DNA of 64,000 bases from assembly GCF_057098645.1 (NCBI RefSeq), contig NZ_CM169472.1. One strand, given 5' to 3'. This document shows positions 6,001-9,000 of the stretch, piece by piece (within the stretch, counting starts at the first letter, position 1; each line of letters begins with the position of its first letter). Position numbers: made by a program.

Positions 6001-9000
6001 AAACGCAGTGCCCGTGCGCAGCGCGATGACTGGCTGAAGAAAGAGATACAGCGCGTATACGATGAAAATCACAAGGTATACGGTGTGCGTAAAGTCTGGC
6101 GTCAGTTGTTACGGGAAGGTATCAGAGTGGCCAGATGCACTGTGGCACGTCTCATGGCGGTTATGGGACTTGCCGGTGTTCTCCGGGGTAAAAAGGTCCG
6201 TACGACCATCAGCCGGAAAGCCGTTGCCGCAGGCGACCGCGTAAACCGTCAGTTCGTGGCAGAACGACCTGACCAGCTGTGGGTGGCTGATTTTACTTAC
6301 GTCAGCACATGGCAGGGCTTCGTCTATGTGGCGTTCATCATTGATGTGTTTGCCGGATACATTGTGGGGTGGCGGGTCTCATCGTCCATGGAGACGACAT
6401 TCGTGCTGGATGCACTGGAGCAGGCGTTATGGGCCCGTCGACCGTCCGGCACGGTCCATCACAGTGATAAAGGTTCTCAGTATGTATCGCTGGCCTACAC
6501 ACAGCGGCTTAAGGAAGCCGGATTACTGGCATCAACAGGAAGTACAGGCGACTCGTATGACAACGCGATGGCGGAGAGCATCAATGGTCTTTACAAAGCG
6601 GAGGTAATACACCGTAAGAGCTGGAAAAACCGTGCAGAAGTGGAACTGGCCACACTCACGTGGGTGGACTGGTATAACAATCGACGATTGCTGGAAAGGC
6701 TGGGCCATACTCCTCCGGCAGAAGCAGAAAAAGCTTATTATGCTTCCATCGGAAACGATGATCTGGCAGCCTGAGTTCACAGATAAAACACTCTCCAGGA
6801 AACCCGGGGCGGTTCACGTTATCACAGATTTCAATAATGTCACCGGGTGTGTGACGCAGCCCCTGTGACCCGAGCGTGAAATCCACCGTCTGCGTTTCCA
6901 GCAGTCCGGTCTTTATCACCCACAGCCCGGCACGGTGGGCCTGACCGCGACTGGTGCAGCCGAACGCATCCATCTTCAGCAGGTTGCGCCCGTAGCGCAG
7001 TATGGCTTCCGGGTCTTCCACCAGTTCCGTGGAGGTCTGCCAGCCGTTCTGCGGGTCGGTGTAATTCACCTCCACCGCCGTGTGGCGGTCCTTCAGGGCG
7101 CTGAAGCTGTAGCGAAACCCCACGCCGTTATCATCCACCACCACATCGCTGTTGGTGTACGGCCACACCACATCCGACGGACGGTCCTGAACGAACGTCA
7201 GCGTCTGGCCGTTCCATACCGGCATACAGCGCATCGCCGAGCAGAAATCACTGAGAACGTCCCACGCCTTACGCTGTTGTGACAGGTACGCATTAAAGGT
7301 CATCCGCGGCTCTGTGCCCCCGAAACCATCCGGGACCGTCTGGTCGCAGTACTGCGCAATGGCATACAGCGCCCATTTGTCCACGTCTGCCGCCCCCAGA
7401 CGTTTTCCCATGCCGTAGCGCGGGTGGGTCAGCATGTCCCACAGGCACCAGGCCGGGTTGTTGCTGTATGCCGGTTTCAGACTGCCGTCCCAGATACCAC
7501 TGTACGTGCGTTTTTCCGGGTCATAGTTTGACGGTACCTGGATGATGCGACCGCGGATATGGTAGTTCACCGTCATCTGCTGACCGCCAAACTGCTCCGC
7601 ATCCACCTGCAGCCCCACAATCGCCGTGTTCGGGTAGCACTGTTTCACATCGATGATTTCGGTGTATGACGACCAGAGCGTCTTATTCTGCAGCTGGTCC
7701 GTGGTGCTGTCCGCCGTCTCCCTGACCATCCGGATGTTAAAGGGCCGGGGCGGCAGATTATCCAGAATCACCGACGCCAGGAACTGCGAGGTGGTCTTGC
7801 CGTTAATGGTGACATCCTTTTCCGTCATCCATTTACCACCACGCTCAAGCTGAATCAGCAGGCGGACAGACGTCGGGTTACGGTCACCCTTTGAGGTGGT
7901 CTCCACCAGTGACTGCACCCCGAAGGTGACCCGCAGGCGGTCAATGTTCGCGGATGTAATGGTGCGCGTCACCGGCTTTGCCTTCGTCACTTCCACGCCC
8001 AGTGCGGTTTCAGCTCCGGAGGACTCAAAGCCTTCAGGTGGTGTCTGCTCCTGCTCCCCGGCGTGCCAGACCGCGGTCACACCATGTATCACAGGATTAC
8101 CGTCCGTGTCCGTCAGCGGGGTTTTGTTCACCAGGATACTCTGCAGCCCCTTCACCGGACCTTCAATCGGCCCTTCACCAATGGCGTCAATCACGCTCAT
8201 CATCTGCGTGGACTTAAGATTGTCCTTTGCCTCTACCGGCGTGTGCGCCTTGCCGCCCCCTTTACCCACTCTGTCCCCCTCTCCTGTCTGATGTCTGAAT
8301 CTGTTTATGCCAGAAAACAACAGGCACCCCGGAGGGTGCCTGTGTCATGACGGAATAAAATTTCTGAAACTCTTCACATTTCCGGCAATTGCCTGTAGCC
8401 GCAATAATGACGCTGCATTACTTTTTTGATGCCTGAAAAATAACTCCATAACGTTAATCTTCATCGTTCTCTCCCGCAGCTCCGCTAACTCTGCGGGATT
8501 TTTTTATTTTCATCCCTGCCCGATAACCACCACTTTCCCGTCTCCGCCCTCATCACGGGTGCTGATGTCCTGGGATATCCGTCGTGAACCAACCAGCATT
8601 TCACCGTAAGGCACCGGCATCGGGTTCCCCTGGGCAATCATGTTATCCAGCGAGGAAAAGTACGTGTTCTGTCTGCCGTTATCCGTGCTTTTGTACTCCG
8701 GTACTTTAGCCTTCGGGGCCAGCATCTGAGCCACACCACCCAGAATCATGCTGGCCCCCAGAGAAAACAGCATCGTGGTGGCAGAAAAACCACCGGCTGC
8801 CAGGGCTGAACCCCATAACGCCATTGATGCCCCGGCCGTGAAGAACGACCCCACGATGGCTGCCGCCCCCAGCACAATCTGCAGTCCGCCCTTTCCGGCC
8901 CCGGCCAGTCGCGGCACAATGTGGATGACCGTTCCCTCACCCAGCTGTTCGTGAAGACGGGCGTACACCGCCTCCGGTGCCGTGTCATCACCGGCAATAC

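Follow-up and report, generated by a model that had tools for sequence, protein, structure and literature searches.

The window analyzed here is a stretch of 64,000 nucleotides (nt) from contig NZ_CM169472.1 of the RefSeq assembly GCF_057098645.1. It contains a prophage whose tail operon lies on the minus strand, and we have studied the gap between two genes of this operon, I and J. A previous examination of the DNA by itself, which we call the sequence-only reading, had described a gap of 240 bases at 8270-8509. Its coordinates and content are borne out by the open reading frames (ORFs) and Pfam domains of the region. J is preceded by a purine-rich Shine-Dalgarno sequence (8285-8274) and is truncated past approximately codon 484 by an insertion sequence (IS) of the IS3 family. 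The two genes had been described as adjacent in phage lambda, which is approximately right: the lambda gap has 60 nt, not zero. Compared with lambda, about 166-180 bases of the gap in the window are added DNA. The gap almost certainly holds a self-contained small RNA gene, a "moron" of the PasB family, in a copy identical to EcOnc22 and EcOnc23 of Escherichia coli O157 Sakai. Pathogenic E. coli were already known to have a small RNA in this place, named EcOnc22 in enterohaemorrhagic strains (EHEC) and PasB in enteropathogenic strains (EPEC).

The hairpin noticed in the sequence-only reading, cccgcag...ctgcggg followed by a T-run facing the tail operon on the plus strand, is confirmed by sequence and folding. 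Its stem has 8 bp: U8472 and CCCGCAG (8473-8479) pair with CTGCGGG (8491-8497) and A8498. The loop has 11 nt (8480-8490) and a U7 tail follows (8499-8505). The fold of 8466-8506 has an energy of -13.2 kcal/mol (z = -3.6), a value not reached by any of 200 shuffled sequences. A consensus scan of 7800-9000 also flags the hairpin; in these 1.2 kb it gives four terminator-like sites, where 0.9 would be expected. Across the 26 distinct variants of the gap described below, neither stem arm changes, and the loop varies in sequence and in length (10-16 nt). This stem-loop with its U-tract is the intrinsic terminator of the small RNA and likely also its Hfq site. The sequence-only reading had proposed an antisense terminator. 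It does stop transcription opposing the tail operon, but as the 3' end of a dedicated small RNA gene, not as a free-standing insulator.

The identity of the RNA is supported by comparison with two published sets of data. The gap is identical, in 240 of 240 positions, to the I-J gaps of the Sakai prophages Sp15 and Sp14. Hfq crosslinking revealed EcOnc22 in Sp15, and its homologues are EcOnc23 (Sp14) and EcOnc24 (Sp11) (Tree et al. 2014, PMC4104026). A probe shared by the three detects an RNA of about 85 nt on Northern blots, and the published list gives EcOnc22 as destabilised in the absence of Hfq (PMC4104026). This probe, GGGAGAGAACGATGAAGATTAAC..., corresponds to the minus strand of the window at 8475..8453 (23/23). 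PasB is an 83 nt RNA of prophage PP6 of EPEC E2348/69, NC_011601.1 1466343 to 1466261 (PMC8550237, table S6). It lies in antisense orientation between E2348C_1436 and E2348C_1437 (Pearl Mizrahi et al. 2021, PMC8550237), which are I and J. A blastn comparison of PasB with the window gives 81.7% identity over 71 nt (E 5e-14); megablast gives no link between the two RNAs. Of the 23 positions of the PasB probe, AATCCCGCAGTGATCGCGGAGCT, 18 agree with the minus strand of the terminator, and the five mismatches are all in the loop. The published probes match the minus strand, therefore the RNA is transcribed from the plus strand. The gaps of E2348/69 and the window align end to end. As an independent check, a covariance model has been constructed with 11 distinct variants, excluding the sequence of the window itself. 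It matches exactly 8430-8505 on the plus strand (76.2 bits, E 3.5e-13), the only significant match in the 64 kb. The search for a small RNA proposed along with the sequence-only reading has thus been positive: published small RNAs map to the gap and the model places the RNA there.

With respect to EcOnc22, EcOnc23 and EcOnc24, no difference in sequence is found: the gap is that of Sp15 and Sp14, on the same strand, between the same genes and with a perfect probe match. The host strain and the prophage are different, since the prophage in the window is placed at ssrA and is most like those of O145:H28 strains. PasB of E2348/69 shares with the window the I-J locus in a lambdoid prophage, the antisense orientation, the terminator stem, the U-tail, the conserved core before the terminator and an upstream block with a possible CRP site. 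Both RNAs are identical in 64 of 85 aligned columns. The RNA in the window is 7 nt shorter (76 vs. 83 nt), and the first pairing motif and the stretch from the CRP-like site to the RNA differ. From these alignments, EcOnc22-24 of EHEC and PasB of EPEC appear to be a single family. This equivalence is not stated in the searchable part of the text of either the 2021 paper or a 2026 preprint (Zhu et al. 2026, bioRxiv 10.64898/2026.05.13.724894). The EcOnc names never occur in the accessible text of the preprint, and Table S6 of PMC8550237 gives no EHEC homologue for PasB. The function of EcOnc22 was listed as unknown in a 2021 review. The equivalence, a link to CRP and a possible role in cis, both discussed below, are modest leads, small additions to the known picture.

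Table 1. Features of the window. Candidate elements are marked as such.
Feature	Position	Strand	Description	Basis
Small RNA gene, PasB/EcOnc22 family	8430-8505	+	antisense to tail operon	covariance model, blastn, probes
Intrinsic terminator of small RNA	8472-8505	+		consensus scan, folding, alignment
Candidate seed UUAAUCUUCAU	8454-8464	+	single-stranded, just upstream of terminator; ATCTT 8457-8461 invariant	
Candidate -10 box (b) TACTTT	8419-8424	+	TAnnnT in all variants; predicted start ~8431	alignment
Alternative candidate promoter (a)	8380-8408	+	-35 TTCCGG 8380-8385, -10 AATAAT 8403-8408; predicted start ~8415	alignment
Putative CRP-like site ATTTCTGAAACTCTTCACATTT	8360-8381	+	half-sites 8363-8367 and 8374-8378	matrix score, conservation, spacing
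Hairpin of tail-operon strand, ACAGGCACCC-TCCG-GGGTGCCTGT then TTGTTTTCT	8311-8343	-	terminator-like, just before J ribosome-binding site	
Tail assembly gene I	8510-9187	-	stop TGA 8512-8510	Pfam Lambda_tail_I 1.6e-16, ORF list
Tail tip gene J	6817-8269	-	GTG start 8269-8267	GpJ domains
Tail gene K	9085-9822			
P22-type antirepressor-like gene	9876-10754	-		
sar antisense RNA	10756-10822	+		RF00262, 66.7 bits
Tail gene L	11551-12249			
Tape-measure gene	12583-15819			
IS21-type istA/istB pair	15868-18286			
AgvB	37275-37336	+		96.5 bits
STnc100	37337-37527	-		144.7 bits
IS3-family element	5497-6816		inverted repeat ends at 6816; orfA/orfB 5561-6774; frameshift pseudoknot 5842-5958	
IS2-like element and ORFs	1954-5308		between smpB/tmRNA and truncated J	
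smpB	49-531			
tmRNA	746-1108			

The spacer is widely distributed, with a match in 147 phage records and, out of 5426 complete E. coli genomes, in 1738. Phages VT1-Sakai, CP-1639 and Stx2a_WGPS6 carry a copy with 100% identity, and variants at about 80% are present in BP-4795 and the PhiR12 phages, whose listed hosts are K-12 or E. coli C. We have compared 80 loci from IMG/VR whose I protein is 96-100% identical to that of the window, and the small RNA is found directly after I, on the opposite strand, in all 80. Their gaps fall into four size classes. Gaps of about 240 bases contain only the RNA (26 distinct sequences), and in those of about 346 bases (CFT073 type) J is preceded by a different hairpin. 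The two largest classes, of about 854 and about 906 bases, have an antisense gene for a Cu/Zn superoxide dismutase, sodC (Pfam Sod_Cu, 3.9e-32 in the former, likewise present in the latter), located between J and the small RNA. Extra DNA accumulates at the I-J junction, antisense sodC being an example. Loci L051 (~2170-3030), L077, L082 and L113 (1573-1915) belong to the relatives with larger gaps.

Conservation within the 240-base class, expressed as mean pairwise identity, follows a pattern. The 5' stem arm of the terminator is 100% identical and the 3' arm with the U-tail 93%, the arm itself being invariant. The core at ~8454-8464 reaches 87%, the block upstream of the promoter (8344-8379) 93% and the hairpin of the tail-operon strand (8310-8343) 87%. 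Lower values are found for the promoter region (69%), the 5' part of the small RNA (57%) and the terminator loop (53%). A pattern scan in which each species was represented by one genome gave true homologues only in Escherichia albertii, plus three odd contigs. This agrees with the confinement of Pas RNAs largely to Escherichia and Shigella reported in the preprint (Zhu, Shabalina and Storz 2026, bioRxiv 10.64898/2026.05.13.724894). The odd contigs, with matches of 66-76 bits, are filed as Parendozoicomonas haliclonae (460 bp) and as Collinsella and Clostridiales metagenome-assembled genomes. Most probably they represent phage DNA of E. coli that was mis-binned or that contaminates these assemblies. 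Another 15 matches of the scan have been discarded as weak terminator look-alikes (26-34 bits).

What is known of PasB gives an idea of what the RNA in the window may do. In EPEC, the base means of pasB are 482 and 1082, those of the nearly silent I and J only 5-15, and Hfq is required for its stability, the log2 fold changes for wild type versus delta-hfq being -6.8 and -2.4 (PMC8550237). It shows 37 interactions in RIL-seq and is among the most connected small RNAs of the accessory genome (PMC8550237). Its partners include ler, perB, bfpB, bfpI, espC and the 5' untranslated regions of tolC and ydbJ, besides fabR, ftsZ, galE, glk, ffh and trmJ (PMC8550237). We have searched for contiguous Watson-Crick matches between the body of E2348/69 PasB and five fetched partner regions and compared them with shuffled PasB bodies. 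The longest match is with fabR (11 nt, 0% of shuffles as good), followed by tolC (10 nt, CAAAUGAAGA, over the start codon, 0.3%). Matches of 9 nt are found for ler, which has two more of 8 nt, and for ydbJ (5% of shuffles as good in both cases). The 7 nt match of trmJ is not above chance (47%). The best matches are all in nt 22-44 of PasB, within or beside the RIL-seq fragments, therefore the pairing region is probably the single-stranded stretch before the terminator. The part of E2348/69 PasB homologous to the candidate seed of Table 1 bears the contiguous matches of 7-10 nt to ler, tolC, ydbJ and trmJ. The preprint also places the PasB seed just upstream of the terminator, from conservation (Zhu et al. 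2026, bioRxiv 10.64898/2026.05.13.724894). Duplexes of the RIL-seq partners predicted with ViennaRNA duplexfold were uninformative, long and looped with z near 0. The variant in the window retains AUCUUCAU and differs on either side, so it would be expected to have a partly different set of targets. More generally, the variable 5' half of the family may change target choice.

These observations can be combined in a model. Read along the plus strand, the module would have a CRP-like site first, then a sigma-70 promoter, the small RNA itself (~76-91 nt) and finally a terminator abutting the stop codon of I. It would sit between this stop codon and the hairpin and leader that lambda-type phages have before J. 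The silent prophage would produce the RNA, Hfq would bind and stabilise it, and its single-stranded AUCUUCAU region could pair with AUGAAGA-like sequences of host and virulence mRNAs, often at start codons. The outcome would likely be repression of translation by occlusion of the start regions.

Several points weigh against this identification or limit it. The 5' end is ambiguous. If set by homology to the published 5' end of E2348/69, the small RNA has 76 nt, and an alternative end near 8415 gives 91 nt. Each length corresponds to one of two candidate -10 boxes, and the Sakai Northern shows ~85 nt. The variant is only ~75-82% identical to E2348/69 PasB, and its first pairing motif differs (UCCAUAACGUU vs. 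UCCUUCACAUU), so that the targets may differ. Rfam 15 has no matching family, and a permissive search of 7800-9000 gave only matches at chance level (E at least 1.8). The complete lack of variation in the terminator stem means that covariation neither supports nor tests it. In addition, the coordinates of EcOnc22 in the published table (PMC4104026) are ~120-160 nt below the probe site in the current Sakai record, an offset which we ascribe to the version of the genome, given that the probe for EcOnc06 is displaced in a similar way. Transcription and Hfq stabilisation of this copy are taken by analogy from the identical Sakai and the homologous E2348/69 loci and should be considered as probable properties.

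The sequence-only reading had suggested a remnant of a lost insertion, and the gap might indeed be decaying DNA whose hairpin is a leftover, or a bare insulator without a gene. The lambda gap is much shorter, relatives have taken up foreign DNA at this junction (the sodC classes) and the prophage in the window is itself degraded by IS elements. Nevertheless, alignment to phages and prophages has found the same spacer in functional relatives, including the three phages with an identical copy, in phages with listed laboratory or natural hosts and in the 1738 genomes, and the RNA is kept in 80 of 80 relatives. The contrast between stem arms, core and loop is that of a patterned conservation, and an Hfq-dependent transcript has been detected from the identical sequence (PMC4104026). 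A relic is very improbable, and that suggestion has not been borne out. It is scarcely credible that the gap encodes a protein of 39 amino acids repressed by the antisense RNA, in the style of a type I toxin-antitoxin system. An ORF of 39 codons is present on the minus strand (8464..8345), its ATG follows GGGAGAG, and the terminator of the sense strand comes after it. The small RNA spans its ribosome-binding site and first codons, and two phage records have a hypothetical protein annotated here. But the start codon is ATG in 18 of the 26 distinct variants and ACG or ACA in the other 8. The length goes from 7 to 41 amino acids, and frame-shifting indels destroy the frame after ~10 codons, beyond which the sequences are unrelated between variants. 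The peptide is not hydrophobic. Neither this ORF nor another of 40 amino acids on the plus strand has a significant Pfam or PHROG match. The latter (8307-8429) has been discarded, since its ATG is lost in many variants of the alignment. The apparent start of the minus-strand ORF ("MKIN") is false: it arises from ATGAAGATTAA, which is the complement of the RNA core. A type I system calls for a conserved ORF under the antisense RNA, and no conserved protein-coding ORF is found in the gap among the 26 variants. The description of the gap as non-coding holds for proteins; for RNA it does not.

A different possibility is that the small RNA acts mainly in cis, by directing cleavage of the late tail mRNA or blocking J, which would add to a role in trans; conversely, the late mRNA could mop up the small RNA on phage induction. 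The complementarity of the RNA to the late I-J transcript is perfect over 76-91 nt, all 80 relatives keep the RNA in the same position, and a conserved hairpin of the sense strand lies just downstream, before J. On the other hand, the partners published from RIL-seq are trans targets, no chimeras with the I-J region are among those listed in the part of the supplementary text consulted (PMC8550237), and the tail genes are nearly silent in the lysogen, with the base means given above. We find a mainly cis action unlikely and prefer a PasB-type RNA pairing in trans.

The basic picture, already known in the field, does not change. What the locus illustrates is that an odd non-coding gap among the structural genes of a phage operon, instead of being debris, can hold a gene for a regulatory RNA that is carried horizontally. 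Standard annotation (PGAP, Rfam 15) leaves this RNA unmarked. It comes from a prophage which is silent and, in the window, defective. The EPEC homologue contacts mRNAs of virulence regulators and pili (ler, perB, bfp) and of core genes (tolC, ftsZ, galE, glk).

The transcription start has been considered together with a possible control by CRP. A sigma-70 consensus scan of 7800-9000 detected no promoter, and the two candidates in Table 1 derive from the alignment alone. The start predicted from box (b) agrees with the published 5' end of PasB. Promoter (a) reads TTCACA-16-TATAAT in variants of the E2348/69 type, and its xATxAT box is conserved in the alignment. The CRP-like site is the best 22-mer of the whole window, with 16.2 bits against 11.8 for the next one and within the range of the training sites; the matrix is approximate, made from 15 classic sites. 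On the other strand, the site reads AAATGTGA-AGAGTT-TCAGAAAT, with a left half matching the CRP consensus in 8 of 8 positions and a right half in 5 of 8. The half-sites are invariant in 13 distinct variants, in which only two positions of the central spacer vary. None of the 26 variants has an indel between the site and the promoter, though identity in this stretch is no higher than 69%. With one mismatch allowed, TGTGA-N6-TCACA shows no enrichment in the window (two found, 2.35 expected), therefore the argument for CRP rests on the matrix score, the pattern of conservation and the spacing. In the 346-base (CFT073-type) and 906-base classes, homology with the window ends just beyond the CRP-like site. 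In the 854-base class it ends between the two candidate -10 boxes, and the site is lost there.

The center of the site, 8370.5, is at -59.5 to -61.5 from a start at 8430-8432 (about -60.5 from 8431), so that with box (b) the site would have a class I-like position. If the start were at 8415, the center would be at -44.5, which is no known activating position. A useful comparison is Spf, which is Spot 42, a small RNA repressed by CRP. PasB is more abundant in overnight LB than in exponential DMEM medium, and Spf is reported with the opposite pattern (PMC8550237). The behavior of PasB fits activation by CRP, and it also fits control by the stationary phase. We consider it possible, though somewhat doubtful, that the small RNA is wired into the catabolite control of the host through cAMP-CRP and has in addition a phage role, tuning J or being titrated on induction. 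If the link to CRP is true, the sensing of carbon sources would feed a network of virulence and host mRNAs through phage DNA.

The gap contains a second hairpin, on the strand of the tail operon, which is absent from the sequence-only reading. Together with TTGTTTTCT, the hairpin at 8343..8320 has -23.1 kcal/mol (z = -4.1) and is stronger than the terminator of the plus strand. In the alignment, 99.2% of the cells are paired on this strand. There is one compensatory pair, from CG to UA in three sequences and to UG in one. All seven one-sided changes give G-U pairs on the tail-operon strand and would be C-A mismatches on the plus strand, which is why we assign the hairpin to the former. Lambda has a terminator-like hairpin inside its late operon, just before the ribosome-binding site of J, on the coding strand of the I-J gap (AACCGCC-TGCG-GGCGGTT then TTTGTCATTT, lambda 15445-15504, L087:1246-1305). 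The hairpins of lambda and of the CFT073-type gap occupy the same place as that of the window and are non-homologous. We read the hairpin of the sense strand as an ancestral element in front of J, and the small RNA module (~8344-8509) as inserted between it and I. Its role could be that of a terminator in the lysogen or of an mRNA stabiliser. Between this hairpin and the CRP-like site there is a perfect palindrome of 8 bases, GTCATGAC (8344-8351), which is nearly invariant.

Other elements of the prophage are included in Table 1. The antirepressor-like gene of P22 type adjoins the sar antisense RNA, and the pair is inserted between tail genes L and K. The tail operon has in this pair a second accessory module, likewise with an antisense RNA of its own, and sar is 2.3 kb from the small RNA. 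The sar RNA of P22 resembles PasB in being a phage antisense RNA within a run of late or accessory genes. It differs in acting in cis on ant mRNA, as opposed to the trans partners of PasB, and there is no sequence relation. AgvB and STnc100 lie back to back and converge, an arrangement which corresponds to the PR' moron site described by Tree et al. (PMC4104026). AgvB and AsxR have been rejected as the identity of the RNA in the gap: both map to the PR' site, and the AgvB of the window is at 37.3 kb. They are similarly short, Hfq-bound RNAs of lambdoid prophages, made in the lysogen from their own promoter to their own terminator (Tree et al. 2014, PMC4104026). The differences are their site downstream of Q/PR' instead of the tail operon, the lack of sequence similarity and their function as sponges of core small RNAs, while the published partners of PasB are mostly mRNAs.

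Besides the IS3-family element in J, an IS21-type istA/istB pair abuts the tape-measure gene. The prophage in the window is unable to make a normal tail, yet its small RNA module is intact, with the very sequence found in inducible Stx phages. The genes for smpB and tmRNA mark the position of the prophage at ssrA, and the window is most like the prophage of O145:H28 strains. Between these genes and the truncated J, the ORFs that accompany the IS2-like element are annotated in the closest genome as type III effector genes, for example nleG7.

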